DNA of 64,000 nucleotides, taken from IMG/VR virus record IMGVR_UViG_3300029121_000001; one strand, 5' to 3'. A program made the translations under genes and the position numbers. Below, in pieces: positions 2,021 to 44,700 of this stretch. The notes under the pieces are model-generated. The model did not search any database and was not told the origin of the DNA. It worked only from the letters and a program-made list of their open reading frames with translations. How positions within the stretch are numbered: the stretch's first letter is position 1; every line of letters begins with the position of its first letter. The stretch comes from a virus.

Positions 2021-3067
2021 TTACTTATTATGATTATCATAATTTTCCATGGCAGCTTTCAATCTTGTCTGTATTCTATTAGTTTGCTCCTCAGTCATTT
2101 TATAAAATTCAAGAGGACTAAATTCCTGTTCAGATTCAATAAAAGGAACAATCCAAAGAATCTCATCAGAATCCATAATAATCATATACTTCATCTTGAT
2201 AGAGTTTAAATCAATATCGTATCCAAACTTAATAGGAACAGCTTTTACGATATTAATTCCACCACACATCATAGACAGAAATACCTTATTCTCATCAGAA
2301 ATGGGCTTATTAAACTCAAGTTTAAAATCAGTTTTAATAATTCCAATCTTAGAATAAATATCAGTCATCAATCCACAATGGCCAATAAACTTAAAGAGAC
2401 TATTACAATATCCATTATAGCAATCATCTTTAATCGCATTCAGGAAATTCAGAGTAGTATCTTTAGCATATCGAATTGCGGTTTCATAAAGATCATTAAG
2501 AATGTCTTGTGTAGTAGTATTATCGAGTAAAACAGCAAGTGTGCTAGGTGTATCAAATTTGTAAACGTTAGCCATACGAGAATCAATGATTTTAGAAGCT
2601 GCACTAAGATCACTAAAACTATATCCTTCAGGACAAGCATCATCGGTAATGGAAAATCCTACGTCGTCTTCATTAGGATCAAGAAAAGTTTTAAAGATAT
2701 TCATTAGAGATTGACGTGCAAGAATGCAAGGACTATCTGCATCGATCATATGAATATCTTTATTCTCCATAAAGAAAAGCATAATGATATCTTTAATTTC
2801 TCTACCATTTTCTAATTCAGTAACTACTACGTTACTAAGAGACAGAATACCATCAGGAGCTAGAGGAGTATAACCCTTAATCATTTCCTTAAATTTATCT
2901 TTAGGAAGAGTTTTATATCCTTTCACCTTATAATCATGATCAAGTTCTGCATAATTCCAACTTTTACCATTATCAGATTCTTTGATAATACGAACCATAT
3001 CAAAACCATCATCAATACTATTATATTTGCAAAACAGTTTACCGATATTTGTTTTCAATTCTGTCAT
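2021..3067 (-). CDS. hypothetical protein
   Basis: 348-aa ORF, AAGGAG RBS 8 nt before the ATG. Confidence 0.85.
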   Translation of the reverse strand: MTELKTNIGKLFCKYNSIDDGFDMVRIIKESDNGKSWNYAELDHDYKVKGYKTLPKDKFKEMIKGYTPLAPDGILSLSNVVVTELENGREIKDIIMLFFMENKDIHMIDADSPCILARQSLMNIFKTFLDPNEDDVGFSITDDACPEGYSFSDLSAASKIIDSRMANVYKFDTPSTLAVLLDNTTTQDILNDLYETAIRYAKDTTLNFLNAIKDDCYNGYCNSLFKFIGHCGLMTDIYSKIGIIKTDFKLEFNKPISDENKVFLSMMCGGINIVKAVPIKFGYDIDLNSIKMKYMIIMDSDEILWIVPFIESEQEFSPLEFYKMTEEQTNRIQTRLKAAMENYDNHNK

Positions 3068-3128: not shown

Positions 3129-3156
3129 GACCAATAGGACGAAACTCCTATTGGTC
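3129..3156 (-). terminator. intrinsic terminator after 3191..3514
   Basis: Hairpin gaccaatagga/tcctattggtc followed by TTTTATTGTTTATT on the minus strand. Confidence 0.65.
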
Positions 3157-3190
3157 TCATTATTATATTATCTCAGCAATTGGAAATTTA

Positions 3191-3514
3191 TCATCGACAT
3201 TCTTGAACATACAAATTAGCACAATTACCCGTAGATTGAGCATCTATTCTAAATACTTTGCCATATATATTCTTTCGATTATGAATATCATAATTAATAT
3301 AATTAACCATGTTAGCCAAATCGGAAGGATTAGATGTCATGATTTGCATTTGAAGCGTATAATGGTTTGAGTCAGTGATACCACACACTCCAGTTACATT
3401 ATATTGCTTTACAATATCATATATTGCCATTGAATGGTCAAAGAATCGTAGAATATCATCAATAGGATAAGTAGATGCTTTATATGTCTGTCCAATGAAT
3501 TCTGGCATATTCAT
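3191..3514 (-). CDS. hypothetical protein
   Basis: 107-aa ORF, AAGGAG RBS. Confidence 0.8.
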   Translation of the reverse strand: MNMPEFIGQTYKASTYPIDDILRFFDHSMAIYDIVKQYNVTGVCGITDSNHYTLQMQIMTSNPSDLANMVNYINYDIHNRKNIYGKVFRIDAQSTGNCANLYVQECR

Positions 3515-3529
3515 TAGAGTTTGACTCCT

Positions 3530-3685
3530 TTAGGTAAGATTATCTTCTATCATTCTACCTACTTGTCTAGCTCCTTGTTCCTCTTTTGATAATTTACTTT
3601 CTTCTTCTTTTTCTCTCCAATACATATAATACAATGTATTTATATCAGATAATAGAAGATGATCGAATTCTAACATAGAGGTCAT
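3530..3685 (-). CDS. possible small ORF (51 aa)
   Basis: MTSMLEFDHLLLSDINTLYYMYWREKEEESKLSKEEQGARQVGRMIEDNLT fills the gap between two minus-strand genes, but no clear RBS. Confidence 0.3.
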   Translation of the reverse strand: MTSMLEFDHLLLSDINTLYYMYWREKEEESKLSKEEQGARQVGRMIEDNLT

Positions 3686-3708
3686 GTTTTTAAAATACTT
3701 AACCAGAG

Positions 3709-5658
3709 TTACTTTTCTGTATATGTAGTCGCGATACGAACCAATTGCTGCCGTGTAAAAAGCATACCACGAGGATTGACAGTGCTCTCAGCTACCTTAT
3801 TACCACACTTCGGACAATTAGTTTCAGGCATCACATACTCAATATCAGCATTAGACTTAATAACAGCAGCATTGATTAGAGAAGCAACAATGCTAAATTC
3901 AACAGTATTAAATTCCTTAAGGATCTTAGAATATGCAGCAATCTTAGACTTGAAAGTCTTAGCATGATCGCCAGGATACTTTTTCCATCCAACAGGATAT
4001 AGATTACCATCATCACCGATCATATAAATACGATCAATGAATCTAATGACACTAATAATGGATTCATACTTTCTGATGAATGCATCATCAAGAGCACCAT
4101 ATTCATACATGATAGTGAACAAAGAAGGCATCTTGATACCAACAGCAAATCTATCATTGATGACAGTAACTACAGATTCATATGCTCCAGAGTTGTCAGG
4201 TGTTAGTTCCATATTCTTGATAGAATCAAACTTCTTCTTGGTATCATCGCTTCCGAATTTAACCATCTTATCAATGGGAAGATCATCGGATAGCCAAGCA
4301 TATTGGCAATGATCATTGTCACATGTGTAAGGTACATAGTTAGCACCTTCTAGAGATGCTACATATAGTGCCATAAAAATGCTATCTAGATCGCCAAAAG
4401 GAATGGTCTTAGCCCATGCTTCCAGAGTAGCAGGACGATACGGATTGACATCATGCTCAAAAATAATACGAGCCTGAGTAGTTGTCAGAACAGTATTAGA
4501 ATTATTATCCTGCTCTGCTAGCAATGCAACTTCAGCACCCTTTAGAGAAGATGCAATATAAGGACGATTTGCAAACATCAAAGGCCAAGTAGCAGTCTTA
4601 ACTGCAACGGGCTTAGTATTTTTCAAAACGTCCTTAATATTAATGACCTTATTAGAAACAACAAGCTGAGATGCATTTACTTTACGACCAGTGTTAACAA
4701 TCTTCTTCATGATATCATTACGAAGATTTGCCATTGCAACATCAACAAGTTTTTCAGATTCCTCATCATCAATAGGATCAGTTCTAGAACTTTCATCCTC
4801 ATCATCAGACTCTTCTTCAAAATCATTGTCATCAATATCTTCTAGATCATCAGATGTCACATGAGAAATATTGTTATCCATACTAGTCAAGGTATCATGC
4901 TTATCATCTTCAGCAGCAAGAATCTCTGCATCCTCGGACTCAACAGCACTATCTTCCTCAACGTCATCTGTGACGGTCTCATCCTCCGCATTCTCTTCTT
5001 CAGGAGCAGCTTCTTCCTCTACAATATGAGCAAAAGGATGAGGATTATTATCTTCTTCGATATCTTGATTATGAATCACAACATGAGTAGGCTCTTCAAC
5101 TTCTTCATCCTCATCATAATCAGAATCTTCAAAGTCATCATTTAGATCTTCGGACACAATACCATTATCTGTATTGATTGGTGCCTTAATCTTGTCATCT
5201 TCACTCATAGGTGTATATAGAGGATTCGGCATATACTGAATCTCATCACCAACATTCTCTAGACCATTCTCAATGCTTTCACGGTTAGCAGCATCTTCTT
5301 CTTCCATCTTAGCAACAGCTTCATGGAATTCCTGCTTACGACGAGTAACAGCAGCTGCTAGTTCGTTGACATACTTCTCTTGAATAGGCTTAGGTTCAGG
5401 CTTACTAACAGGCTCAATATAATCATTAGGATTAATTTCTTGAATCTGATCTGCAGATTCAACAGTACGATGAACACGCTTACGATTAGGATTAATCTTA
5501 ATTGTCTGACGGTTAGGATTCTGATTTTCATCAGCAATACCAGTAACAGTACCACCTGCTGCATTGATATTAATAGGTTGAGTATTCTGGGCAGGAGTTA
5601 CGCCAGGCTGTGTAATAACAACCTTAGGTCCAGTTCTATTTAGATCATTCACATTCAT
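3709..5658 (-). CDS. hypothetical protein with a long acidic low-complexity centre and a C-terminal CxxC pair
   Basis: 649-aa ORF, AAGGAG RBS. D/E-rich region; NCPKCG near the C-terminus. Confidence 0.85.
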   Translation of the reverse strand: MNVNDLNRTGPKVVITQPGVTPAQNTQPININAAGGTVTGIADENQNPNRQTIKINPNRKRVHRTVESADQIQEINPNDYIEPVSKPEPKPIQEKYVNELAAAVTRRKQEFHEAVAKMEEEDAANRESIENGLENVGDEIQYMPNPLYTPMSEDDKIKAPINTDNGIVSEDLNDDFEDSDYDEDEEVEEPTHVVIHNQDIEEDNNPHPFAHIVEEEAAPEEENAEDETVTDDVEEDSAVESEDAEILAAEDDKHDTLTSMDNNISHVTSDDLEDIDDNDFEEESDDEDESSRTDPIDDEESEKLVDVAMANLRNDIMKKIVNTGRKVNASQLVVSNKVINIKDVLKNTKPVAVKTATWPLMFANRPYIASSLKGAEVALLAEQDNNSNTVLTTTQARIIFEHDVNPYRPATLEAWAKTIPFGDLDSIFMALYVASLEGANYVPYTCDNDHCQYAWLSDDLPIDKMVKFGSDDTKKKFDSIKNMELTPDNSGAYESVVTVINDRFAVGIKMPSLFTIMYEYGALDDAFIRKYESIISVIRFIDRIYMIGDDGNLYPVGWKKYPGDHAKTFKSKIAAYSKILKEFNTVEFSIVASLINAAVIKSNADIEYVMPETNCPKCGNKVAESTVNPRGMLFTRQQLVRIATTYTEK

Positions 5659-5685
5659 TTGATTATCTCCTTACTAAAAATATAA

Positions 5686-6060
5686 TTAAGATACTAGATC
5701 ATTTAGTTCTATAGGAGTAGAACTATTTTCTGTATCATATATGAACTTAGTACCATCAGCAATAATTATGATATTGAGATATTTAGTATTTTCTTTCAAA
5801 TTTAAAATTACATCACATGCAAGAAATTCTCCAGACATATATGTTTCAATTTGTTTTTGAATTCTAGTACGAAGCATCTCAAGATCATCTTCAGAAATAA
5901 ATCTGTACTTAGGTCCTAGTCCTACACCCATTCCAGGATGCAAAGGATTAGATCCAGGCTGTAATATTAATAGTCTAAAGAGTAGTGTTCCATAAGCATC
6001 TGCTCCTTTAATTGATTTAGGTTCAAGATACTCACTCGTAGTCAATAAATGTTCTACCAT
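5686..6060 (-). CDS. hypothetical protein, possibly gp25/GPW-like baseplate wedge protein
   Basis: 124 aa. LILQPGSNPLHPGMGVGL resembles the PxFG region of gp25-like proteins; weak, from memory. Confidence 0.4.
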   Translation of the reverse strand: MVEHLLTTSEYLEPKSIKGADAYGTLLFRLLILQPGSNPLHPGMGVGLGPKYRFISEDDLEMLRTRIQKQIETYMSGEFLACDVILNLKENTKYLNIIIIADGTKFIYDTENSSTPIELNDLVS

Positions 6061-6191
6061 ATGATTACCACCTACCTAATTATATAATTGTATTCCATAT
6101 AAAATATTATAACAATTAATATTAAGTCAATGAAAATAGGATGGCTAAACATCCAAATAATTTACTGAGTATATTTTAAGGAGGAATAGTA

Positions 6192-9100
6192 ATGCAGTCT
6201 ATTATTCTTGCAGAATCAGTTGTTGCTAATACTGCTAAGAGTACTTATCAAAAGAAATATAAGTGCCCTTATTGTGATAAACGATTTGTAAGAGCAAAAC
6301 TTCATATTCATATTCAAAATGAACATGAAGATCTTATACCTGAAGGTTATACTGCTCTTAGAGTAGCATTCAATACTATTAATCATAAAACAGAAGGTCA
6401 TTGCATTATGTGTGGTGCAGTGACTGATTGGAATGAAGACAAAGGTAGATATGAAAGACTCTGCAATAATCCTAAATGCCATGAAGCATATAAGAAGATG
6501 GTTGCAGAACGTACTAAGAAAAAGTATGGCACAGAACGTCTTCAGACAGATCCAGAATATGCAGAATATGTTCAAAGAAAAGCACTTGCTGGACGCAAAA
6601 TGCATGGAGAATATAAATTTGCTGATGGTGGAGTAATTGAGTATTTCGGAAGTTATGAAAAGAAATTCCTTCAGTTTATGGATCAAATAATGCATTGTAA
6701 ATCTGAAGATATTCTTGCTCCTGCTCCTAGTATCAAATATATTTATAATGGAGAGCAGCATCTATATATTCCTGACTTCTATTATATTCCTTATAATCTT
6801 ATTATAGAGATTAAAGATGGTGGAAGTAATCCGAATAACCATCCTCATCGTACTGGAGAAGATGAACTTAAGCTTAGATGTAAAGAAGAAGCTATTATAC
6901 AGCTTAATGAATTTAGCTATGTAAGAGTAGTTAATAATGACTTTAGCCAAGTATTGAGTATCATGGCAGTGCTTAAATATAACATGGCTCATAGATACAA
7001 AGACCCTGTTGTTAAGGTAAATGAGAGTACGCTTCTAGAAACTGCTAGTATAGTAGATAAGAATTTCAAGCCTAAAGACAGAATTAATCTATATTCTTTG
7101 AAGAAAGTTCATATCACGGAAGCCGTCATTGAAAAGTATAAGAAACAGTATCCTGATCTGCGTCATGTTAGATGCAAAGATACTGATACTTATAAATGTG
7201 ATGGATATATGTGGTTTGATAATGAGAATCTAGTAGCCCAAGTAGGATCTTGTGAGTATCTAGATGATGGAACAAAATGGATTGTAAGTCTAGATATTAT
7301 GAAAGATTATAAGGGTCATGGTTTAAGTAAACAAATTCTTGATTTTGCAACTAAGATCATGAAATGCAAATATCTTTCTGTAGATAAAAATAATAAACTT
7401 GCAAAAATGATTTATGATCAGTATGGATTTAAAGTTTATTATGAAGATGATAAGATGTACTACATGACTCTAGAAGCAAATCCTGTAAAGGTCAATGAAT
7501 CTACTTTATTAGAATCTGTATCTAATAATTATCCTAAGGATCTTTATAACTGGATGAAGGCAAATATTACATATAAATCTACTGGAATTCTTCTATCACC
7601 TGAAGAGGTAGAAGAATATGGATATGGAGATTGTCATGATCAGGCAAATTATATTCATAGTAAATTGTCTACTAAAGATATTTCTAATGGAAGATTATTT
7701 GTGATTGAATATAATGATCTAAATTCTCCTGCAGGAAAAACTCATACTGCTGCTTATTATAAGCAGAATGGAAAGTATTATTGGATTGAAAATGCTTGGT
7801 ATGAGCAAACTGGAATCCATGGTCCTTATAATAGTATTTTCGATCTTAAAATTGCTATTGTAAATGTATGGGTTTGGGGTAATTATAAGAATCTATATAT
7901 AGGCTCTGTAAATAGATCTAAAATTAAGAATGGTATGAATCTAAATGATTATGTAAATGCTTGTCTTCCTGAGAATGAAAAAATGATTAAGCCTTTTATT
8001 ATCAATGAAGATAATACCAATCATATTAAGAATAAAGTTGTTGAGTCTATGTCTGATACTATTGGTGGTGCATTACCACTAACTCCTAATCCTATTCCTT
8101 ATGAATCTAATAAAGATAATTATTACATTATCCAGCATATGGAGAATAATGCTTTTGCTTATTCTCTTACTAAAGATCCTGTACAATATACAATGTATTC
8201 TGTAGATCCTGAATCTAAAGGATTTTATAAAGTTTTTAAGTCTGATAAGAGTAAGATTAATAAAAAATATTCTACTTTTAAGATCAAGGATCGCCAAAAA
8301 GCAAAAGAACTTTATGATGAATTAGCAAAGATTGAATCTTCTAATTCTAAAACTTTCTTTGCTGGAGATACTTCTAATGATTATATTTATCAACGTCTAA
8401 CTGAAGGCTCTAAAATAATTTCTGATGATCAAATTAGATATGATACTAGATTTGAAGAAGTTAAAAACTTCAATGAAGAAGTTCAAGATATCTGTGAATC
8501 TGTAAGAAATTTCATTCTTGGTGATCCCATCACTAGACTAGAAGAGCAGGTATCTACTCTATCCAATCTAGTAAATATCAATGAATCTTCTAATTATGTC
8601 TCTAGTGATTATGACATGATTACTAGTATAGAAGATTATGATAATAAAGTTCTTAAAGCAAAAACTGCTGAACAAATGGGTTTAATTATTCTATATCCTG
8701 AGTTTAAATATGGTACTTGTAATAAAAATACCATTGATAAACTTAAGAAGAAATATGCAGACTTTAATGCTCTTTCCCAAGAAAAAAGAACTCTATCTAA
8801 TAGAACAGCATATCATATCTTTGGATATGATAATGATACTCTATATAGTAAGCTACTTAATCTCTATGTATCAACAACTATGAAATCCGGAGGAGGATCA
8901 GAAGGATATTCATATAATACTATGAGATCTATTACTCCTCCTATTGAGCAATATTATAAACCTGGTGAAAAAGTTGGTACAGTTAGTTCTGATACTAAAG
9001 TGGCTAGAGAATCTTTTACTGATGATTCTTCTTGGAGACAAGTTGTAAGCAAACTTTGTCTAGAAGCAAATAACACAAGTGATGCAAAAAAGAAAAATGA

Positions 9101-9902
9101 TCTCAAAAATGAGATCATCAATCTTGGATGGAATCCTGAAATTCCTTTCAATGAAGAAGCCATTACTAGAGTAAAAAATATGAGACATAAGCTTCATATT
9201 TTTACAGAGGTGGATGCTGAAGAGTATATCAGAAATATTCATACTTTCAATGAAGCTACTTATAATCAATTGAAAGATAAGATTGTTCCTGTATTCATTT
9301 GCCTATTCAAAGGTAAAGCTCTTCATAGTAGAGGAATTGAGCTGTATACCGGATCTGAATGGTCTCATGCTGCAATATCATTCGATTCTTCTATGAAACA
9401 AATGTATACATTTAATATGAATCCTAAAGTAACTTCTAATGGAATATCTAAAGGATTTACTATTGAAAGTATAGAAGCTTATTGGAAAATAGATCCTTCT
9501 ATCAAATTCAAAGTTCATGCTCTATTTGTTACAAAAGAGCAAAAGATTATGATGGAAGATGCAATCAAATGGTATGTAACTCATCAGAATGAAACTAAGT
9601 ATTCTTTTAAAACCATTATCAATATTGCTCTAAAACGAGTATCAGATTTTGGTTCTGAATATGCAAATAAAACTGAAATGGTATGTAGTCAGTTTGTATA
9701 TACTATTTTGGCAATTGCAGATTTCAAAACTAAGGTCACTAAAGATGCAAGTCTAGTAAGTCCTGGAGATCTTGATACTAGTATTGATGATAGACTATAC
9801 TCTATGTTTATTGGAGGTATTGGCCTATATAGTAGTAAAAAGATTGATAGAATGGTTAGACAAATCATTCCTACACTACCATTAGATAAGTATAATATTT
9901 AA
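6192..9902 (+). CDS. multidomain polyprotein: C2H2 Zn finger, PD-(D/E)xK-like nuclease motif, GNAT acetyltransferase, transglutaminase-like Cys peptidase, C-terminal permuted papain/YiiX-like peptidase
   Basis: YKCPYCDKRFVRAKLHIHIQNEH; IPDFYY..IIEIKD; YKGHGLSKQILDFA (GNAT motif A); YGYGDCHDQANY; WSHAAISF ... MVCSQFVY ... SPGDL. The linker PV(V)KVNESTLLE is repeated. Confidence 0.6.
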   Translation: MQSIILAESVVANTAKSTYQKKYKCPYCDKRFVRAKLHIHIQNEHEDLIPEGYTALRVAFNTINHKTEGHCIMCGAVTDWNEDKGRYERLCNNPKCHEAYKKMVAERTKKKYGTERLQTDPEYAEYVQRKALAGRKMHGEYKFADGGVIEYFGSYEKKFLQFMDQIMHCKSEDILAPAPSIKYIYNGEQHLYIPDFYYIPYNLIIEIKDGGSNPNNHPHRTGEDELKLRCKEEAIIQLNEFSYVRVVNNDFSQVLSIMAVLKYNMAHRYKDPVVKVNESTLLETASIVDKNFKPKDRINLYSLKKVHITEAVIEKYKKQYPDLRHVRCKDTDTYKCDGYMWFDNENLVAQVGSCEYLDDGTKWIVSLDIMKDYKGHGLSKQILDFATKIMKCKYLSVDKNNKLAKMIYDQYGFKVYYEDDKMYYMTLEANPVKVNESTLLESVSNNYPKDLYNWMKANITYKSTGILLSPEEVEEYGYGDCHDQANYIHSKLSTKDISNGRLFVIEYNDLNSPAGKTHTAAYYKQNGKYYWIENAWYEQTGIHGPYNSIFDLKIAIVNVWVWGNYKNLYIGSVNRSKIKNGMNLNDYVNACLPENEKMIKPFIINEDNTNHIKNKVVESMSDTIGGALPLTPNPIPYESNKDNYYIIQHMENNAFAYSLTKDPVQYTMYSVDPESKGFYKVFKSDKSKINKKYSTFKIKDRQKAKELYDELAKIESSNSKTFFAGDTSNDYIYQRLTEGSKIISDDQIRYDTRFEEVKNFNEEVQDICESVRNFILGDPITRLEEQVSTLSNLVNINESSNYVSSDYDMITSIEDYDNKVLKAKTAEQMGLIILYPEFKYGTCNKNTIDKLKKKYADFNALSQEKRTLSNRTAYHIFGYDNDTLYSKLLNLYVSTTMKSGGGSEGYSYNTMRSITPPIEQYYKPGEKVGTVSSDTKVARESFTDDSSWRQVVSKLCLEANNTSDAKKKNDLKNEIINLGWNPEIPFNEEAITRVKNMRHKLHIFTEVDAEEYIRNIHTFNEATYNQLKDKIVPVFICLFKGKALHSRGIELYTGSEWSHAAISFDSSMKQMYTFNMNPKVTSNGISKGFTIESIEAYWKIDPSIKFKVHALFVTKEQKIMMEDAIKWYVTHQNETKYSFKTIINIALKRVSDFGSEYANKTEMVCSQFVYTILAIADFKTKVTKDASLVSPGDLDTSIDDRLYSMFIGGIGLYSSKKIDRMVRQIIPTLPLDKYNI

Positions 9903-12914: not shown

Positions 12915-13139
12915 TTAAATATATATTATATTAGCATAACTACTATAGTTTCTAAAATCGAACCCACTGCTCCAGTCAAATCCATATGTAGCATATACTT
13001 TACCGTTATATTGATATGCTGTAAAATATTCAGATTGTCCTGGACTATCTAATAAATCACATCCTATCATTGTGCCATTTAATGGATATCCACTAGTAGT
13101 AATATAAATATTATTAAGCTTTTTTATAGAAGCGTCAGA
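12915..13139 (-). CDS. startless cassette a (74 aa), SDAS...IIYI family
   Basis: Opens at TCT GAC GCT TCT directly after an in-frame TAA. No start codon, no RBS. SDASIKKLNNIYITTSGYPLNGTMIGCDLLDSPGQSEYFTAYQYNGKVYATYGFDWSSGFDFRNYSSYANIIYI. Paralogue of cassette j. Confidence 0.6.
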   Translation of the reverse strand, partial: SDASIKKLNNIYITTSGYPLNGTMIGCDLLDSPGQSEYFTAYQYNGKVYATYGFDWSSGFDFRNYSSYANIIYI

Positions 13140-13635: not shown

Positions 13636-13661
13636 AAGTGAAAATATACACTTTAAATAAA

Positions 13662-13922
13662 TCTGACGCTTCTATTAAGATAAAGAATAAAATTGTAAAT
13701 GTAAAAGATTATTATACATTTAGAGATGGTATCATATTAAATACCTGCCTTATGACGTATTCTAATGTAAGTTATTCATATAGGCCATTTATTCAAGTGC
13801 GTTACGATAATAATGATAATAGTTATAGTATTAGAATACAATGTATCATTAATAGTGATATTGATGGATATAATTTCGATAATAGTGTGAATGATGGAAG
13901 TATTATAATATATTATATATAA
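13662..13922 (+). CDS. startless cassette b (86 aa), the only motif copy on the plus strand
   Basis: AAATAAATCTGACGCTTCTATTAAG. SDASIKIKNKIVNVKDYYTF...SIIIYYI. The frame is open from 13638 (GTG), but there is no RBS. Confidence 0.55.
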   Translation, partial: SDASIKIKNKIVNVKDYYTFRDGIILNTCLMTYSNVSYSYRPFIQVRYDNNDNSYSIRIQCIINSDIDGYNFDNSVNDGSIIIYYI

Positions 13923-13926
13923 AATA

Positions 13927-13955
13927 ATCCAGTAGGAATTAAATTCCTACTGGAT
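13927..13955. terminator. bidirectional hairpin between convergent cassette b and the radical SAM gene
   Basis: atccagtaggaatt/aattcctactggat. Confidence 0.6.
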
Positions 13956-13962
13956 ATTATTG

Positions 13963-15297
13963 TTACTTATTAAATGCTTCTTTTTCTAGATTAAATAAAT
14001 AATCAGCTTCTTCTTTACCAAGAATATCTACTACTTCATTATATGGAAGATTGATCTTTGTTGGATCTTTATCTCCTAACTCAATACATCTTCTATTATA
14101 ATAGTAATAGTATCCTAATACTCTACCTTTATGAGCATAACAAATTCCAGTATATCTTTTATTCGCAGTTCCATATAATTCATAATTATATGCAGAACAC
14201 CAACCACAATTCAAAGATACAGGACAATCAATACACTTCTTTGGAGATTGAGAAGTGAATGTTATAGAATCAAGTTCTTTCTTGATATTCTTACTACTCT
14301 CTGATTTAAATAATCCATTAAAGCAATCACCAATAATAATTTTATTAGCTTTCTCTTTTCCAATAGATATAGGAGCATATCTAATACAAGGATAAGCATT
14401 GCCATCTGGGTCAAATGCCATCATATGACCGGTACCACCACAGAAATTCTTATCATCATGCTGTAGATTGACTGCTCCTCCGAGAGTAGAATCAAGTAAA
14501 GCTACAATAGCATTACTTTTATTTTGAATTAAATAATTAGAAAGCTTCTTTAATTCAAAATAAATATTCTTTGCATCACTAATAGAATATTCTGGTTCAT
14601 ATGCAAAATTGCAATTAACAAGGTTACATCCATTCTCAATCATCATCTTAATAGATGGAGTAATATATTGAACAGAATTGGGAACAAATGTCATTTTACT
14701 ATTCGCTGAACCATAAATATTTTTTACATCAAGAAATGCTTTATATGCTTTTTCAAATGATCCTTCTCCATATCTATCGATTCTATATTTATCATGAAGA
14801 TCTTGAATACCATCAATAGATACAGTAATTGATAAGAATTCTTTATACTTATGCACAAAATGTTGTACATCTTTATCAAACCAATTCTGACCATTTGTAG
14901 CAAAAGCAATTCTAGTAAATTGAGCAATAGGAATATTCCTTAAATAGCATTGATGAAAGAAATAATCACATATTTCTTCTACTAATTTTGCTTCTAGCAT
15001 TGGTTCTCCACCAATAAAATCAAGAATAATACTTTTTGTATTCTTATTGATAAAATCAGTGTCATTATCCTCATACATATCTAGAATTCTATCAATACAT
15101 TTTTTACCAATATAGAGAGACATAGATCCATCAGACTTATGATGTTCATAACAATAAGAGCAACGAAGATTACACTGATTTGTTACCTGAAATGTAATTT
15201 CTCGTGCAGCCTCCATTTTTCGATCTTCTCCATTTGAAAAAATCTCTCGAATATACTCACCATAATTGTCTCTAGATCGACTATTAATACTTACCAT
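13963..15297 (-). CDS. radical SAM enzyme with C-terminal SPASM-like Cys cluster (anaerobic sulfatase maturase / peptide maturase family)
   Basis: CNLRCSYCYEHH (CxxxCxxC), GGEP motif. C-terminal CIDCPVSLNCGWCSAYNY...GICYAHKG. Confidence 0.85.
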   Translation of the reverse strand: MVSINSRSRDNYGEYIREIFSNGEDRKMEAAREITFQVTNQCNLRCSYCYEHHKSDGSMSLYIGKKCIDRILDMYEDNDTDFINKNTKSIILDFIGGEPMLEAKLVEEICDYFFHQCYLRNIPIAQFTRIAFATNGQNWFDKDVQHFVHKYKEFLSITVSIDGIQDLHDKYRIDRYGEGSFEKAYKAFLDVKNIYGSANSKMTFVPNSVQYITPSIKMMIENGCNLVNCNFAYEPEYSISDAKNIYFELKKLSNYLIQNKSNAIVALLDSTLGGAVNLQHDDKNFCGGTGHMMAFDPDGNAYPCIRYAPISIGKEKANKIIIGDCFNGLFKSESSKNIKKELDSITFTSQSPKKCIDCPVSLNCGWCSAYNYELYGTANKRYTGICYAHKGRVLGYYYYYNRRCIELGDKDPTKINLPYNEVVDILGKEEADYLFNLEKEAFNK

Positions 15298-15584
15298 GTT
15301 AATTCTACCTCATTATTATCGAAATCAAATTCATATTCTATAGAAGAAGGAACTTTTCCGATTATAGAGGCAATAAGAGTATTTACGTTTACCATAAATT
15401 CAATATAGGCATTCTGATAATCTACTCTATATTTATCTATCATAGCTGCAGTTTCTGCGGATTTATTTTCTGCAAATTCACGAGCCAATACACAAATGAA
15501 ATTTTTATAACTCATCATAATATAATGAAGTCTTTCAATTGTAATAGATTGCTCTTTATCAATATTAACTTTCTTTTTCTGCAT
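15291..15584 (-). CDS. hypothetical protein
   Basis: ORF overlapping both neighbours. The ATG at 15584 (MQKKKVN) follows GGAG; the track start at 15605 is less likely. Confidence 0.65.
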   Translation of the reverse strand: MQKKKVNIDKEQSITIERLHYIMMSYKNFICVLAREFAENKSAETAAMIDKYRVDYQNAYIEFMVNVNTLIASIIGKVPSSIEYEFDFDNNEVELTW

Positions 15585-16185
15585 TATTATTAGTCTCCAT
15601 TTCAATCAGATGATAAGCTGTAGTTTCAGTTTTAAGAGATTCATATCGATCTCTTATATAAAAAATTTTATCGAGAATCCTGATAAGAAGACTATTGTCT
15701 CTATCCTTTTCTTCAATCATCTTATTAGCAATTGAACGTAGCACAGTATAAAGACAATATACATGAAAATTAGAATTTGTACTCATACTTAGAAAAATGT
15801 TTATTTTATTATTATCTATAGGAAATCCATCAATAACAGTAAAATTGCATTTATCTGAATATGTCTTTAAAGTAATTGTATATATAGTAAGAAGTATTTC
15901 TTCATCTGTAGCATCATAATTACATGCTGAAAAAATACTAGATACTACAGAACTTACATATTTTGCATAATCATGTATATTAATAGAAAAGTCAGAATGA
16001 CAAAGTGTGCAAAAATAATCTATATAACAAAATTCGGGTTCTTTAGATATATTATCAAAAATAATAAGCATATCTTTAGTAATTGGATCCATTGAAAGAA
16101 ATCTATTAAGTAAGAAATTCTTTTTAAAGAATTTATCATTTTTAGAATAATTTATAGTAAAGGTATCATTAGTAATATCTATCAT
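15565..16185 (-). CDS. hypothetical protein
   Basis: 206-aa ORF, GGAGG RBS. Confidence 0.8.
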   Translation of the reverse strand: MIDITNDTFTINYSKNDKFFKKNFLLNRFLSMDPITKDMLIIFDNISKEPEFCYIDYFCTLCHSDFSINIHDYAKYVSSVVSSIFSACNYDATDEEILLTIYTITLKTYSDKCNFTVIDGFPIDNNKINIFLSMSTNSNFHVYCLYTVLRSIANKMIEEKDRDNSLLIRILDKIFYIRDRYESLKTETTAYHLIEMETNNNAEKES

Positions 16186-16198
16186 AAAATATCCTCCA

Positions 16199-16756
16199 TT
16201 ACATTAACCAAAATCCACATCCAGAGCAAGATTCACAAGTATGAGCACATCCAGATCCACACCCTTCGCATCCATCACACCCTCCACTACATCCTCCACT
16301 ACATCCAGAGCAAGTAGTGTTACATCCTCCACTACAATTTGTTTTACAATTTCCAGAACATCCTTTACAACCACCATAGCAACCAGTATTGCACAATCCA
16401 CTACAAGATGCTTTACATCCAGTAGAGGTCGCATCTTTAGCAATTTTAGAAAGATTGCCTACTGATGTAGTAGCATTTGTAAGTACACTAGCAATAACAT
16501 TAGCATTTTTATCAGGAGTTGTATTACTACCAGTAACAGCATCCAAAGGTTTAGTAATCTTTTGAATGTGTTCTAAATTGATTTTAATATCTTTACCTTG
16601 AGCTGGTGTAGTAGTATAATCATATGAAGTTCCATTATAGGATTTCATACTTCCAACACTTGCTGAATTTGATCTACGTGTAATCTCCGATTTTACGAGT
16701 TTCTTAAGTGCAGTAAAATCACTAGCATTAATTAATTCGCTTTTTTTAATACCCAT
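16199..16756 (-). CDS. protein with an extremely Cys/Gly/Ser-rich C-terminal tail
   Basis: 185 aa. The last 72 residues contain 19 Cys at 3-4 residue spacing (CKASCSGLCNTGCYGGCKGCSGNC...CESCSGCGFWLM). Confidence 0.8.
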   Translation of the reverse strand: MGIKKSELINASDFTALKKLVKSEITRRSNSASVGSMKSYNGTSYDYTTTPAQGKDIKINLEHIQKITKPLDAVTGSNTTPDKNANVIASVLTNATTSVGNLSKIAKDATSTGCKASCSGLCNTGCYGGCKGCSGNCKTNCSGGCNTTCSGCSGGCSGGCDGCEGCGSGCAHTCESCSGCGFWLM

Positions 16757-16760
16757 AATA

Positions 16761-17303
16761 TTACCCTCTTACACGAATGCGTACTCGACGAATATCTGTA
16801 TTAAGATCTTCATCGACTGCATATCCTACAATTTGTGTATTTTCTACTATTTCATCATGAAGTTTTGCTTTACCAACTCCAGAAATATCAGAAACTATAA
16901 TAGTATCTCCACGATGAATTTCTCCAATACACTTACAGTATACACGGCCACATAGTGATACAGGAATATATTTCTTAATATTCTTAGAAATATAATCATC
17001 ACTATTATCATATTGATCACCACCAATAATCATAGCATATTCATCAGAATGAACACCTGCAATAATACTACTTTTATTAGTAGCTTTAATATAGCTTTCT
17101 TTATCAGAAGATAGATCAAGAGCAATAATATCTCCAGGTTCTGTATATTCTCCTCTAGGGAAGAATTCTGCATAGTCATTATATACAGCACCATAACATT
17201 TACTAAATTTTGCTACACCATTTTTATCTACATAATAACTAGCACTACCAAAATTAATAGTACCCGTCATTGTTCCACCAGACTTAAGAAGATAAGCGTC
17301 AAA
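16761..17303 (-). CDS. startless cassette c: tail-fibre-like C-terminal module with Peptidase_G2/IMC-like domain
   Basis: Opens TAA TAA TTT GAC GCT TAT, giving FDAYLLKSGGTMTGTINF (classic fibre motif). DYAEFF...IAGVHS...PVSLCGRVYCKC resembles the phi29 gp12-type autochaperone. An internal ATG at 17270 has no RBS. Confidence 0.6.
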   Translation of the reverse strand, partial: FDAYLLKSGGTMTGTINFGSASYYVDKNGVAKFSKCYGAVYNDYAEFFPRGEYTEPGDIIALDLSSDKESYIKATNKSSIIAGVHSDEYAMIIGGDQYDNSDDYISKNIKKYIPVSLCGRVYCKCIGEIHRGDTIIVSDISGVGKAKLHDEIVENTQIVGYAVDEDLNTDIRRVRIRVRG

Positions 17304-17340
17304 TTATTATAATTTTAATATATTTCAAAAAAAAGAAAAA

Positions 17341-17364
17341 CCAATAGAGAGAAATCTCTATTGG
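17341..17364 (-). terminator. intrinsic terminator between cassettes d and c
   Basis: ccaatagaga/tctctattgg hairpin followed by TTTTTCTTTTTTTT on the minus strand. Confidence 0.7.
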
Positions 17365-17371
17365 TTTATAA

Positions 17372-17587
17372 TTAAATATAATACACTATACAAGATATAT
17401 TATCATCCGTCCAAGTTGATGTATTACTACCTAAAGTAAAATGAATACAATATATCCAAGATGATTTAGATATAAATGCAATATAATTATAATAGTTTTC
17501 TTTAATTGCAACAGATATTGGAATTCCTAATGTAAACTTTTGTCCTGATTTAAAATCTATACTCTTAATTTTAGTAGAAGCGTCAGA
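17372..17587 (-). CDS. startless cassette d (71 aa)
   Basis: TGA TCT GAC GCT TCT. SDASTKIKSIDFKSGQKFTLGIPISVAIKENYYNYIAFISKSSWIYCIHFTLGSNTSTWTDDNISCIVYYI. No in-frame start near the 5' end, no RBS. Confidence 0.6.
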   Translation of the reverse strand, partial: SDASTKIKSIDFKSGQKFTLGIPISVAIKENYYNYIAFISKSSWIYCIHFTLGSNTSTWTDDNISCIVYYI

Positions 17588-19131: not shown

Positions 19132-19371
19132 TTATATATAATAAATTATTGCTGTACCTGATACACAGTTATCAACATCATGTGAATTATATCCAGTATT
19201 TGCACATATATAATATAAATTTTCAGTATAATATTTATTATTCATTGTTATACTACACACAGGATAATTAGTACCATTATATATTAATACAGCAGATATT
19301 GGCGTTCCTGGTACAGAAAAATAACTTGACACTTTTACTGTTATATTTTTAATCTTAGTAGAAGCGTCAGA
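19132..19371 (-). CDS. startless cassette e (79 aa)
   Basis: TGA TAA TCT GAC GCT TCT. SDASTKIKNITVKVSSYFSVPGTPISAVLIYNG...GTAIIYYI. The track GTG start at 19332 has no RBS and lies inside the conserved region. Confidence 0.6.
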   Translation of the reverse strand, partial: SDASTKIKNITVKVSSYFSVPGTPISAVLIYNGTNYPVCSITMNNKYYTENLYYICANTGYNSHDVDNCVSGTAIIYYI

Positions 19372-38744: not shown

Positions 38745-41700
38745 TTACGGTGTAGATGCAAGAGCTTCAACTTTTGCTTTCATATTTCTGAGTTGTTCCA
38801 TAATATTATTTTGAATATCTTGTGCAGAATTATTAATATCTCCAATACTAGACGCAGCACCACCAGCAGAAGATGCTAGTTGTGCAATAGATCCCATATT
38901 GTTAATAATGCCATTCAAAATACTTGCAATAGCAGGTAGAGAACTGTTATTATTAGTATTTTGAGTAATCTGTTCTAGATATTTAATAATAATATCAAGT
39001 TTTTCAACATCAGACAAACTAGAAGTATTAACTGTAGTTGCTACAGTATCAATATCAGAAGCAGAGCCTCTAGACAAAGCTTTCTTTCTAACTACAGTAG
39101 GAGTAGAAGAATGGTTAGGATTGGTGAAATCATGAGTAATAGGAATCTTAGTATTCTTAGTAGAAGAACCACTTCCAGATCTACGTGCAGCCACAGCAAT
39201 AGCTTCTTGATCAAGACGGTCAAGTGCACTACCAGTACCATGTAGAGCACTATATACCTCTTCAGCACCCTTCTTACGAACAGGATACCAAGTCTTATTA
39301 GTCTTAGCTTTTTCCATACCCAGACTAGGCATTTCATAATTTCCAAGTGCTGCAGCAGCTGCATCAGCAGGAGTTTTTGCACTCATTAGATTATTATATG
39401 CCTTAGTATACTTACCAGAATTTTTCAATTCATCATAAGCAAAATCAACCTGAGTATTTAGATCACCAACAGAAGTTCCCTTACTCTTAGCAAAAGCGAG
39501 TAGATTATGCTTACGATTACCGCTTCTAGGATTGCTATTGGCACCAGTCCACTGAGCCAAACCATATCCAACATCATCGTTAGCTTTATCAGGCCACTTA
39601 TTGTTAGAGTCTACATAATTAGTGTATTCTTTATCGCCGCCATACTTCTTTTCGAATTTGTTCTCAAGATTCATAGGATTGAAATTAGACTCGTTTTTCC
39701 AACAGCCCATAAGACCAGAAATACCAGTCTCACTCATTCCTTTACTCTTAAGACGTTTCCAGATAGCTTTAGCATTATCACTTGCATTTCCAGCATTAGG
39801 AGTAGCTACAGAATTATGGGAAGCATAGTATTCCTGAACAGCAGGATTATAAACAAATCCAAGGAATCTATACTTGGAATTTCCGCCCCAGTTTCCATCA
39901 CTACCCCTCTTACGAGATTTATACTTAAACTTGAAGGAGCTAAATCCAGATTCAGAATCCATAAGTTCATCACTGGAAATAACTTTCTCAACAACAGCAA
40001 CATGGCCAGCTCTACCAACAGTACTAGCCCAAACCATTATTGCACCTGCCTGAGGAGTAGAACCTGTTTGTAGACCAAATTTAGAAGCAAGAGCATACAT
40101 CTGTCCAGCATCTGCATGGAAGTCTCTATACCTCATGGTCTTTTCGCCCTTCATAATACTATAGATATGGTTAAAACGACCGCATGCCCAACCAACACAG
40201 TTAGAAAGAACTGAACAAGTAGGATCAGTAGGATTACCAAGTCTACAATTACTCTGTCCACCATGACTTTTAGTATTATAATAAGAGATGTAAGGATCAT
40301 TTGCCTTAGGCATTTCAGTACAGATCGGGAAAGGAGAATCTCCTGTGTATACATAGCCACCACCAGAAGAACTAGTGTCTCCATAGCTATATCCAGAAGA
40401 ATCGCCACTAGTAGAAGAGTTATTAAAGCCATTAAAAATAGTATTAACGATGGTACCAAATGTTCCACCAACTTTATTTGCTATTGCATTGAATCCTGCA
40501 CTAATACCGGTATTAATAATAGTAGATACATCCATACCACTATTACTAGTAGTAGAAGCTGTAGAACTATCAACATCAGAATCTCCACCTGCAACAACTC
40601 CAAGTTTAGTCTTCTGAAGAATACTCTTCTTATAGAGAGCAGTTCCCTTTAGTTCAGGATCATCAACAATAACATTTCCATTCTTATCCTTGCCTCTTGC
40701 CACAATGTAGTGAGGATTAGGTCCAAACGGACTATTGGTTTTAGATTTGTTTCCATCATCTTCACCAAGAAGAATAGTAGGTTTACCAGAAGAAATAGCA
40801 GAATTAATATCAGTCCTATTATCAGTATACTTAGTATCAATTCCATTTCTTCCAAGGATATCTCCAAAATAAGATGCATTAGTACCACGTTCAGATTTAG
40901 TGCTACCTGCAACATATCCCATCTTCTCAGCATATTTAGCAGTATCTGTAATATCAGTATTCTTGCCAAAAGCTTTCAAGACGGTAGATGCAACAGCAGG
41001 TCCACATCCATCTTGATCAATAGTGCTATTACCAAATTTAGTGAAGTTACCCTTTTGTGTTGTATGGATATCAGATCCAGATCCATTAAAGAAACTGAAA
41101 ATACCTTTCTTTTTCTTCTTAGAAGATTCGATCTTAGCTTTAGCGAGTTTAGCTTGATATGCCTTCTGGGAAGCACCAGATCCAGAGCCATACTTTGCAC
41201 CAGATGCTTCTTTGTTCAGATCAATATTAGATTTACTTGCAGATAGATTATCTTTTGTATCATCCTTACTAGTATCTTTATTCTTTCCTGTGAAGAAATT
41301 CTTGATATTAGTTACAGTTTTTCCAACAAAAGACTTAAACTTATCCTGAGTAGTACTCTTTCCAAGTACGTTATAAACATACTCTTCTACGTTATAAGTG
41401 TGGCCAGTTTCCTGGTTATAAGCTTCAACTGTTGCTTTAGCATCGGCTCTCTTATCAGCAAGAGTACGTGTTAGTCCCTTAAGAAAACGAGATAGAACAT
41501 TGAATACAATGTTAAAGATAGTAGTAGAACTAATAATGCCTCCAATACCAGGAATAGCGTAATTGATACCATTAACAGCAGCAGCTACACATCTTTCAGC
41601 AATAGTAGGCTTTTCAATAATTCCAAGGATACTCATAGCACGGGCATCTTCAAAACCATCTTCAACAGCTAGAGCAATCTGTCCTATATAAATAGCACCA

Positions 41701-44700
41701 GCAATCTTACTAAGAACACCAGTTACCTTAGATCCAGCCTTACCAATTGCTTGTGCAATCTGTTCAGCACAATCATCAATCCAACTAGTATCTTTACCTA
41801 GTTTCTTAGCTACGAAATTAAGTACAGCACGAACAGCACCCTTGCATTTATTTGCAATTTTTGCCATTATTTCAGCGTTCTTACTAACACCAACAGCAGC
41901 ATCAGGATCAATAACTTTAGTAGCAGCTTTATGTGTGAGTTTATCAACACCCTTTTTAAATACATCTCCTACTTTAGATGCACCCTTAAAAGGAGCAGCT
42001 ATTACTTTGCCAAAAGTAGTCTTACTAATAGCTGTTGCTGCTTTTCCAATACCAGGAATCTTACTAATAGAAGTTGCTAATTTTGCACCAGATAGAGCAG
42101 GATTATTACCAAAACTTAGTAGAGCATTTGTGGCAATTCTCTTCTTAAATCTATCAGAGAAGAAAGAAGATACATGATCATCTTGCTCATATGTAGTCAT
42201 CTTTTTGCCAGTAGCACTGATTTCAAAACGATCTACACCAAGTTTTGCTCGCTTCAGAATTTTTCCTATTCCTTTAACTTCCTTCTGGCGTTCAGTAGGA
42301 TCCATTCCTTTGCGCATTCCAGAATCTGCATCTGTTCCAGCAGCTTGTCCACCAAGATAGCTTAATCCTATAATGGTTGCAGCAGATCCTAAAATCGTAG
42401 GAAGATGTGCTATTATAGTTTTACCGAAAGTTCCTCCTAGGAAAGAAGTTATACCATCAAAAATCTTACCGAATAACCCAGAAGCTTTATCCTTAACAAA
42501 ATCAAGTATGGAAGATTTTTTCTCTCCATCTTCATCTGTTTTGCCAATACCGAAAATATCCTTGAATTTATCAAAGAAATTTCCTCCGACAAACATACCA
42601 AAGAATTTGTCCTTTAACTCAGAAGCTTTTCTCTTAGCTTTAATAGCAGCATTAGTAACAGCATCTGCAAGATTAGCAATCCATTCACCCTTAGTATTCC
42701 TTGTATACTGAATTGGATTGCCTTCATCATCAAGAACTGTCTTTGTATTGCCATCTCCACTACTAGCATTATCTCCTGTTGATTCTCCACCTTCCTGAAT
42801 AGGAGCAGAAGAATCACCTGTTACCTTTTTGGTAGGATCTTTAGCTCTATTATTACGGATAATCTCTCTGACTTTTCCTACTTCGATTCCTAGTTTCAAT
42901 GCAATACGCCAATCATTAACACCAGTATTATGAAGGCGCATAACCTCTTTAATAGTGTCTGTTGTAATGATCGTATTATTGCTATTGTTTTCTTTAGGCT
43001 TAGTATTTTCTCCAGCTACTTTTTCTGCTAACTTTTCATATTCTTTCTTAACCTCTTCTGCTTTCTTCTCCATTTCCGTAGAAGGCTTAGAAGAAGTAGT
43101 GTCCTCTTTATTTTCAGGAGGAACTACTCCTGCAGGAGTAGTAGAAGTTTCTTTAGCAGCATCAGCTATAGTAGCTTCTGTTGCAGTAGCAGGTTTCTGC
43201 TCTTTGCTTTCTGCTTCTTCAGTCTGCTTTTCTCCAGTAAGAGATTCAAGAATACCAGAAATCTTATCAGAAATAGTATCTAGAATGGTATTACGTTCAA
43301 TATCGAGTTTATCTACAGCCTCAGTAGTTGCTTCACCAGGTGTAACATTAGCTTTATTATTCAGAGCTTCTCTAGCAGCATCTTCTTTCTTATGAATACC
43401 AGCAGCATCCATACGAAGTTGCATACGAGTACGACGTAGCTCTTTCTTACTCATCTTGCTAATATCAAGACCACTTTCATTGAAGAATGTTTTCTTCTTT
43501 TCACCATAATCTTTAATATCAGCATCTATTTCGTTTAGTCTTTTAACCTCTGCTTCGATTTTTTCTGTCATCGATTTTTTAGTTGTTTCATCGAGGTTAG
43601 AATTTTCAATCTCTGCAATAACGTCGCTATAGTCATTATTATTTTTCTTATGATAATTCATAAGTTTAGTAATAGACTTAGCGAGTTTCTGGTCAGGACC
43701 GTTACCACCATGAGGAAGAGTTCCTACTAGAGTATCTCTTAGATTTTGACGAATCTGATGCTTTTCCTGCTTTAGAACAGTAGGACCATTAAGAGCAGCA
43801 TTTGCTGTCTTAATCATCTTATCACGTTCTTCTCCACTGTATTTAAGCTCCCAATCTGTCAATGCAGATTTTCTAACTTTTTTTCTTCCAGTGAAGAATT
43901 TATATCCAGAATTCTTTTCAATATCATCTCTCTCTTCTGCAGACAGAGAAGAATATCCTTTATTGATATTATGTCTTTTTAAAGCATCACCTGCGGCTCC
44001 CATAAGTTTAAAAGGAGCAGTGATAATAGCTTTGCCAACACCTAAAGCTTTTTTAGCAATCCATTTACCAGCCGTAGCTACAGGAGCAAATAGAGCATCA
44101 AATTTTTCACCAATAGTACGTCTTACAACATCCTTGGCACTGTCTACTATAGACATCATGATGCTCTTAGATTTACCCTTGACCCAATCAGTAAGAGGAT
44201 CAAACAGTCTCTTTATAGGACTAAAGAAATTCTTTTTCGCAAAGTTCTTAATTTTTTCAATACCGTTTTCAGTAAATTCTGCTAGAGGATCTATGACACG
44301 AGTTTGAATAGAACCAAGAATACCACCATGTCTTTCTCCGTTCAGTCCTTCTTTACCGAACATTGCAGATTTAAAAGTTTCAGTATCCTTAACAAGTTCA
44401 ATACCGGCACCAAGTACAAATCCACCCATGACACCACCAGGAGCAAGTCCAATGGTTCCAAGAATTGCACCAAGTGCACCAGCTTTACCCATATCAGGAA
44501 CTTTTTCTGTGATAAATTTCTTAGCTCCTTTAGGAAGAATTCCCTTCTTAATCAGATTCTCGTGATCATCATATTTTCCAAATAGAGCTTCTGATAGAGC
44601 CGTTGAATTGTTAACAATAACAGCACCAGATCCTAGAACAAGGCCACCAAGAAGTCCTAATCCAGACCCAGTTAATGCTGCACCTGCAAGTGCACCAAGA

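Follow-up and report, generated by a model that had tools for sequence, protein, structure and literature searches.

We analysed a 64,000-nucleotide (nt) stretch of viral DNA, IMG/VR record IMGVR_UViG_3300029121_000001 (called the window below, at its full length), which encodes a radical S-adenosylmethionine (SAM) enzyme close to a protein ending in a cysteine repeat. An earlier sequence-only reading had drawn attention to four tightly packed genes on the minus strand, and we reproduced their coordinates, small gap and overlaps: from 16199..16756 down to 13963..15297, the first two genes are 13 nt apart, and the two following pairs overlap by 20 and 7 nt. A further gene, 16761..17270, stops 4 nt ahead of 16199..16756. 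Five genes lie between two terminator-like hairpins, at 17367..17338 and 13955..13927, and 16761..17270 is therefore part of the same unit. Five hairpins of this kind were found in the region, against 0.6 expected. The segment running from 17270 to 13963 is one five-gene operon of a gut jumbo phage. It lies beside tail-fibre genes, and genes near it in the window match "virion structural protein" families of PHROG. The features of the locus are as follows.

17338..17367, minus strand: terminator-like hairpin upstream of the operon, with a 13-pair stem and a T run behind it; the preceding transcription unit ends here.
16761..17270, minus strand: 169 amino acids (aa), phi29-gp12-type (Peptidase_G2) intramolecular-chaperone / autocleavage domain; first gene of the operon.
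16199..16756, minus strand: 185 aa, CXXX-repeat target gene.
16418..16756, minus strand: N-terminal conserved domain of the target, residues 1-113, predicted helical; no signal peptide.
16199..16417, minus strand: CXXX-repeat tail of the target, residues 114-185 and stop, 19 Cys at spacings of 3-4; presumed radical SAM substrate.
15565..16185, minus strand: 206 aa, all-alpha accessory protein, fast-evolving and phage-specific.
15291..15584, minus strand: 97 aa from the ATG (104 aa if an upstream TTG is the start), by profile comparison probably a distant homologue of TIGR04116 ("CXXX repeat peptide modification system protein").
13963..15297, minus strand: 444 aa, radical SAM / SPASM peptide maturase of a phage branch of the TIGR04115 family.
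13927..13955, both strands: bidirectional terminator-like hairpin, 13-pair stem, 8 nt after the radical SAM stop; end of the operon.

The 444-aa protein carries the CxxxCxxC radical SAM site CNLRCSYCY seen in the sequence-only reading, and its radical SAM core begins at about residue 31. In an alignment of 14 relatives, C42, C46 and C49 were invariant, together with C286, C304, C355, C358, C364, C367 and C386. The C-terminal auxiliary Cys cluster of SPASM type, also proposed earlier, was thus confirmed, as these seven invariant Cys form the full SPASM domain pattern. Pfam searches found Radical_SAM and Fer4_12 in the protein, with a sub-threshold SPASM match (E 0.052). The best NCBIfam match was TIGR04115, "radical SAM peptide maturase, CXXX-repeat target family" (E 5.8e-87, 292.5 bits), spanning positions 1-359 of the 359-position model. 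PapB followed 155 bits behind (137 bits), then the SCIFF maturase (83 bits), HxsB, CcpM and others, QhpD being also among the matches (61 bits), while the anaerobic sulfatase maturase model TIGR03942 reached 55.8 bits for a cut-off of 349. All top matches were peptide or protein maturases, so that classification with hidden Markov models (HMM) places the enzyme among peptide maturases and not in a family that acts on other substrates. It also matched PHROG 1802 (E 6.5e-56), and the nearest solved structure by sequence was that of the SCIFF maturase CteB (5wgg, E 5e-16). Phage relatives with 61-68% identity have already been labelled automatically by public pipelines with the name of the CXXX-repeat target family.

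The presumed target of this enzyme is encoded by 16199..16756. Its 72-residue tail with 19 Cys, which had first called attention to the locus, was recovered with spacings of only 3 or 4. The tail opens with CKASCSGLC and contains one Asp and two Glu; no CxPxR or CxAxR motif was seen in its sequence. Among open reading frames (ORFs) of at least 40 aa in the window, this is the sole one with a run of at least 8 closely spaced Cys, and the spacing is not accidental. The DNA encoding the tail holds only 2.5 copies of a 12-nt unit and is not a recent tandem repeat; the Cys periodicity is therefore maintained at the protein level. The target weakly matched TIGR04117 (E 0.094) and matched PHROG 6085 (E 1e-11).

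A homologue search with the target returned 270 proteins. The N-terminal domain is conserved among them, with K18, E24, R28, P51 and K66 invariant, and some of these relatives carry Pfam PF27846 ("tSAM_targ_Cxxx_rpt"). Layout and spacing were counted on the 120 homologues listed. All 120 share a single plan: first comes a conserved domain of about 105-116 aa, then a Cys repeat of 47-170 residues, with 2238 CxxxC and 557 CxxC spacings and mostly Gly, Ser and Thr between the Cys. AlphaFold2 predicted helices at 11-28, 61-75 and 89-103 of the N-terminal domain (predicted local distance difference test, pLDDT, about 80-89), and this model had no fold match in the PDB. An entry motif, C..[SGA]C.G[LMTA]C (relaxed from C-x-x-x-C-x-G-L-C), opens the repeats in 60 of 68 distinct phage targets. 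Targets reach 522 aa, with Cys runs of up to 81. The order of the two parts is not fixed: in locus L089 (7278..8057) the repeats are N-terminal and the helical domain is C-terminal (HMM match at residues 166-254). Three further ORFs, L087 5281..5991 and 7295..8062 and L094 7226..7972, have N-terminal Cys repeats and a C-terminal non-Cys region. The family HMM did not detect the 97-aa partner in L087, L089 or L094.

The sequence-only reading had proposed checking whether enzyme and Cys-repeat gene occur together in related phages. We used the enzyme alignment to fetch 80 viral and 80 genomic loci, the genomic scan covering one genome per species, and scored as positive any same-strand ORF with at least 8 closely spaced Cys within 3 kb of the enzyme. 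The counts were as follows.

Viral loci (n = 80): CXXX-run ORF in 73; 97-aa family in 73.
Bacterial loci with a TIGR04115-like enzyme (n = 36): CXXX-run ORF in 30; 97-aa family in 24.
Control loci with an unrelated radical SAM enzyme (n = 44): CXXX-run ORF in 3; 97-aa family in 0.

The association was strongly positive (73/80 viral against 3/44 control loci), and the co-occurrence of enzyme and repeat is near-obligate. At least one of the seven viral loci devoid of a CXXX ORF (L022) is cut short upstream of the enzyme. The Cys run of the viral loci had a median of 37 Cys and a range of 13-81. Of the 80 viral loci, 70 encode the N-terminal domain of the target, which no canonical bacterial cassette contains. 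The module is widespread among phage contigs from the human gut, with hundreds of protein clusters, of which some exceed 2,000 member sequences. Two sets of loci had unusual surroundings. In L008 (ERZ1310280 NODE_884, 5265..7332) the phage module is joined directly to bacterial infB-rbfA-truB genes, and two other contigs, L006 and L007, contain a 111-aa ORF (6960..7295) ending at the same coordinate. An assembly chimera, an integration junction or capture of an infB fragment could account for this. Four loci from metagenome-assembled genomes (MAGs) of Candidatus Termititenax / Margulisiibacteriota (L111, L115, L121 and L122) have, beside a TIGR04115-like enzyme, proteins of 495-667 aa whose Cys runs count 42-69, with no homologue of TIGR04119 or TIGR04116; they could be prophage-borne or represent a third architecture.

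The two genes between target and enzyme differ in their conservation. The 97-aa protein had no direct NCBIfam match, and a word-indexed homologue search gave one near-identical match only. Identity with the proteins at the equivalent position in two other phages is 44-46%, and an HMM of its family, iterated over the fetched loci, reached bacterial TIGR04116 proteins that adjoin TIGR04115 enzymes. Comparison of a phage-only with a bacterial-only profile by hhalign gave a probability of 93% (E 3.5e-7, 91 columns). On the profile evidence we treat the 97-aa protein as a probable remote TIGR04116 homologue, and it is probably a partner or substrate-handling subunit of the maturase. The 206-aa protein had only three matches in 1.84 billion representative proteins. 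A family HMM detected it in 44 of the 80 viral loci but in none of the bacterial ones; in more distant phages its slot is either empty or taken by an unrelated ORF of 150-195 aa. AlphaFold2 modelled nine helices, with no significant fold match in the PDB. Its possible origin as a decayed TIGR04119 protein was rejected (hhalign probability 0.1%). As this family is patchy and is absent or replaced in distant phages, the minimal phage module consists of the target, the TIGR04116-like protein and the radical SAM enzyme.

The first gene of the operon links the module to tail fibres. A profile of 21 members of the 169-aa family matched the pre-neck appendage protein of phi29 and its auto-chaperone (6qz9, E 6e-4; 3gqh, E 1e-3), as well as 3suc (range of the matches, E 6e-4 to 3e-3). 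The invariant Asp32 of the family aligns with the cleavage site of gp12, that is with the first residue of the released fragment 3gqh, and the family motif 'DyAeff' aligns with 'DFAEYFE' of gp12, the motif D-[FY]-A-E-[FY]-F falling at the beginning of the released gp12 fragment. Pfam PF11962 (Peptidase_G2, IMC autoproteolytic cleavage domain) was matched by 15 of the 21 members (best E 2.5e-6), and the window copy gave no PF11962 match at E<=0.1. About 55 related loci have the domain at the C-terminal end of a protein (up to 1126 aa), as in gp12; the genes of these proteins lie directly upstream of the CXXX gene and stop 0-10 nt before it or overlap it. The protein of 1126 aa is clearly a tail fibre (PHROG E 2e-59), and in the relative L001, where the upstream fibre gene is 5400..6509 and the target gene 6514..7095, tail-fibre and tail proteins are encoded after the module. 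The window differs from gp12 in that its domain stands almost alone and remains sub-threshold in Pfam. No fibre shaft gene is present in the 376 nt upstream of 16761..17270, which hold two terminator-like hairpins.

Distant homologues of the enzyme were found in two cultured phages, Salmonella phage SPN3US (27% identity) and Erwinia phage phiEaH2 (25%). In each, the homologue is one of a pair of radical SAM genes, and two CXXX-repeat ORFs of 127-155 aa lie directly upstream of the pair.

SPN3US (L002, NC_027402), CXXX ORFs 3142..3534 and 3545..3949, on the complement of the NC_027402 record at about 143828..144220 and 143413..143817: unannotated or in the wrong frame (gp166/gp100).
phiEaH2 (L171), CXXX ORFs 2099..2482 and 2425..2892: unannotated or in the wrong frame (gp088/gp087).

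In SPN3US, gp166 is an annotation in the wrong frame. As the CXXX genes of both phages are unannotated or mis-framed, published proteomics could not have detected their products. The SPN3US module has as neighbours gp167, whose annotation reads putative virion structural protein, and gp168. The latter is described in PMC5105663 as a tail protein resembling phiKZ gp131, which is located at the baseplate periphery. The SPN3US literature examined does not mention gp163-gp167 as virion proteins. Two further phages with distant radical SAM homologues, Campylobacter phage CP220 and Phass-1, were rejected as carriers, there being no CXXX gene within 5 kb.

The bacterial CXXX system is defined by comparative genomics only. 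It comprises the maturase TIGR04115, a second maturase (TIGR04119), a small protein (TIGR04116) and the targets TIGR04114, TIGR04117 and PF27846. A canonical cassette is found in locus L009 (MT837480.1), with a 174-aa target bearing a twin-arginine-type signal peptide and with TIGR04115, TIGR04119 and TIGR04116 proteins scoring 630, 235 and 105 bits. This record is filed as 'Bacteriophage sp.' but looks bacterial, tatA/tatC-like genes adjoining the cassette. Another phage-collection match filed under the same name, L010 (MT835702.1), is a SCIFF-type bacterial locus with secDF-/recJ-like neighbours and was set aside as irrelevant. Prevotella/Segatella, Bacteroides, Muribaculaceae and some Firmicutes share the canonical arrangement, and their loci often hold several targets. 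The bacterial targets place their repeats behind twin-arginine-type signals such as 'SRREFFK..', which indicates that the product leaves the cytoplasm.

Phage and bacterial systems have in common TIGR04115 as the full-length best family of the enzyme, a Cys at every fourth residue with Gly, Ser or Thr between, a small protein of about 90-100 aa that is apparently homologous by profile comparison, and adjacent genes on the same strand. The entry motif C..SC.GLC is common to phage targets and a few bacterial ones. They differ in several respects. The phage enzyme scores under the curated TIGR04115 cut-off (292.5 against 350 bits), far from the score of the L009 enzyme; TIGR04119, which occurs in 25 of the 36 bacterial loci as well as in L009 and is sometimes fused to the radical SAM enzyme, was found in no viral locus; and in the Bacteroidales targets examined the twin-arginine-type signal peptide takes the place of the helical domain (about 110 aa) of the phage target. 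Many phages add the fast-evolving all-alpha protein, and the phage module lies inside tail-fibre clusters, behind a fibre gene bearing the auto-chaperone.

PapB is a ranthipeptide maturase that forms Cys-to-Asp/Glu thioethers in CX3D/E motifs. This SPASM enzyme makes many small rings along a repetitive Cys-containing peptide, and PapB, CteB and QhpD all form Cys thioethers. PapB/freyrasin is the nearest characterised model for the mechanism that we propose below. Its substrate is a short peptide, whereas those of the phages are proteins of 185-522 aa, and since only 3 of the 72 residues of the phage tail are Asp or Glu, the acceptor residues must differ from those of PapB. Although PapB is the second-best family, the phage enzyme is far under its cut-off (137 against 340 bits), and with one Asp and two Glu in the tail the assignment to the ranthipeptide class failed. 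CteB shares the plan of a radical SAM core and a SPASM domain. It has an N-terminal peptide-binding domain, in place of which the phage has a separate small partner protein. The SCIFF family itself (TIGR03974) is remote, the phage enzyme reaching 83 bits for a cut-off of 425, and its six-Cys-in-45 peptide is a target of another kind. QhpD introduces several Cys thioethers into QhpC, the gamma subunit of quinohemoprotein amine dehydrogenase, which is retained in a larger assembly. This offers a precedent for SPASM cross-linking in an assembly subunit as opposed to a secreted natural product, although the sequence relation is distant and QhpC has few cross-links, no repeat and no link to viruses.

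Other parts of the window showed features of their own. Four small ORFs of 51-94 aa, 13638..13922 (plus strand) and 19132..19332, 12915..13070 and about 17372..17560 (all minus strand), have C-termini of the form ...I(I/V)YYI or ..IIYI. They align weakly with each other (21-27% identity), and a terminator-like hairpin follows at least two of them (13638..13922 and about 17372..17560). They may be a paralogous family of small proteins scattered across the structural region. A 1236-aa ORF at 6192..9902 (plus strand) has an endonuclease-like N-terminus (PHROG 15137, E 4e-43), then an acetyltransferase-like segment and an enoyl-CoA hydratase-like C-terminus, a fusion unusual for a phage. The largest ORF of the window is a single frame of 3164 aa at 38745..48239 (minus strand).

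From the comparisons above we infer a substrate role for the tail, a thioether linkage and a virion location for the product. The enzyme very probably acts on the CXXX tail as its substrate. In the mechanism that we propose, the 444-aa enzyme would work with the 97-aa TIGR04116-like partner, abstracting hydrogen atoms and joining the thiols of the 19 tail Cys to carbon atoms of neighbouring residues. By analogy with PapB, CteB and QhpD, the links would most probably be thioether bridges, and modification would perhaps begin at the conserved entry motif. The Gly/Ser/Thr-rich tail, otherwise unstructured, would thus become a chain of small rings, and the resulting segment would be stiff, redox-insensitive and protease-resistant. 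The helical N-terminal domain would anchor this segment to the tail fibre, the directly upstream fibre gene, with its C-terminal auto-chaperone domain, being probably translationally coupled to the target. As a whole, the picture of a phage-adapted CXXX radical SAM system that cross-links a fibre-associated structural protein is one towards which we lean slightly.

Several points weigh against this picture. The enzyme lies under the curated TIGR04115 cut-off and is therefore a diverged, separate branch of the family. Neither the window nor any of the 80 viral loci has the second maturase TIGR04119, and the chemistry may consequently differ from that of the bacterial system. We found no experiment on any CXXX-family member in the literature searched. 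The virion location proposed for CXXX proteins is drawn from gene neighbourhood, and AlphaFold2 left the tail of the target unmodelled (pLDDT < 50). Finally, the upstream 'fibre' of the window is reduced to about 31 residues before Asp32 and the chaperone domain, which makes it unclear to which fibre the target would attach.

The sequence-only reading had left two options, a cross-linked fibre or adhesin component and a RiPP-like product (a ribosomally synthesised and post-translationally modified peptide) with an unusually long leader; the former fits the context better than the latter. If the 185-aa protein were the precursor of a diffusible toxin, bacteriocin or signal, its 113-aa leader would be removed and the peptide released at lysis. 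The enzyme does fall in a clade of RiPP maturases, and the targets of its bacterial relatives do bear twin-arginine-type signal peptides. However, family scans recognised no protease, transporter or immunity gene among the operon genes, the CXXX gene is constantly coupled behind a fibre gene in tail clusters, and the length of the longest targets and Cys runs is far beyond the known size of RiPPs. The non-Cys domain, moreover, can be C-terminal. With the helical domain C-terminal in L089 and targets of up to 522 aa, a two-domain structural protein fits better than a leader and core, and we regard a diffusible product as unlikely. That the virion is not involved at all, the Cys-repeat protein being a late assembly factor or host-directed and its fibre adjacency reflecting co-regulation only, we consider very unlikely. 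The chaperone-type domain encoded upstream would suit such a role, and so would the silence of the SPN3US literature on gp163-gp167; but the mis-annotated CXXX genes of that phage were undetectable by mass spectrometry, heavily cross-linked peptides are hard to identify, and a Cys run varying from 13 to 81 between phages is more like the variation of fibre length than a conserved enzyme-like factor.

The nature of the modification leaves more room. The tail might undergo another chemistry (formylglycine or dehydro-residue formation, C-methylation, epimerisation), or it might be a metallothionein-like tail binding metal or iron-sulfur, with the enzyme in support. The CXXX family is uncharacterised, the tail is poor in the Asp and Glu that serve PapB as acceptors, and the twin-arginine-type signals of the bacterial targets point the same way, the twin-arginine pathway typically exporting folded or cofactor-loaded proteins. 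Against this, the nearest characterised relatives by score are PapB, CteB and QhpD, and the seven auxiliary Cys form the full SPASM pattern. We thus judge a different chemistry fairly unlikely. Formylglycine in particular, which the sequence-only reading had considered, is unlikely because of the low sulfatase-maturase score (56 bits) and because neither CxPxR nor CxAxR was seen in the tail; the anaerobic sulfatase maturase class was likewise rejected on the 55.8 against 349 bits and on the lack of any C/S-x-P/A-x-R motif seen there.

We therefore return to thioether cross-linking of a fibre-associated protein and to what is new in it. The sequence-only reading knew of no described phage system of this form. 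This no longer stands in that form: the family is computationally defined (TIGR04114-04119, PF27846), reportedly first by Haft and Basu in 2011, and phage relatives are already labelled with its name. The operon is not a new kind of system, since it is a branch of the CXXX family, defined in silico and already propagated to annotations of phage MAGs. What appears to be new is the phage architecture, with its helical target domain, no TIGR04119, a remote TIGR04116 homologue and a gp12-type chaperone as first gene. We found no paper describing the phage form in the literature searched; a cyanophage paper mentioning a radical SAM maturase proved unrelated.

What is known of radical SAM/SPASM maturases concerns mainly small secreted peptides, and here one is wired into the tail-fibre clusters of phages. 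We put forward, as a tentative proposal, that in tailed phages including SPN3US and phiEaH2 part of a tail appendage is built from a protein with 13 to more than 80 Cys stitched into a ladder of thioether rings. The unannotated or mis-framed Cys-repeat genes of cultured phages would explain why proteomics has been silent on it, and the question is directly testable, as cultured Salmonella and Erwinia phages carry the module. If true, this would be, as far as we found, the first case of radical SAM chemistry maturing a structural protein of a virion, and the ladder would act as a redox-proof substitute for disulfides. A cross-linked fibre element would be a new type of covalent stabilisation for virions, alongside the isopeptide cross-links of the HK97 capsid. 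It would also provide the first chemistry assigned to the entire CXXX-repeat family, which is common in Bacteroidales such as Segatella copri (L125).

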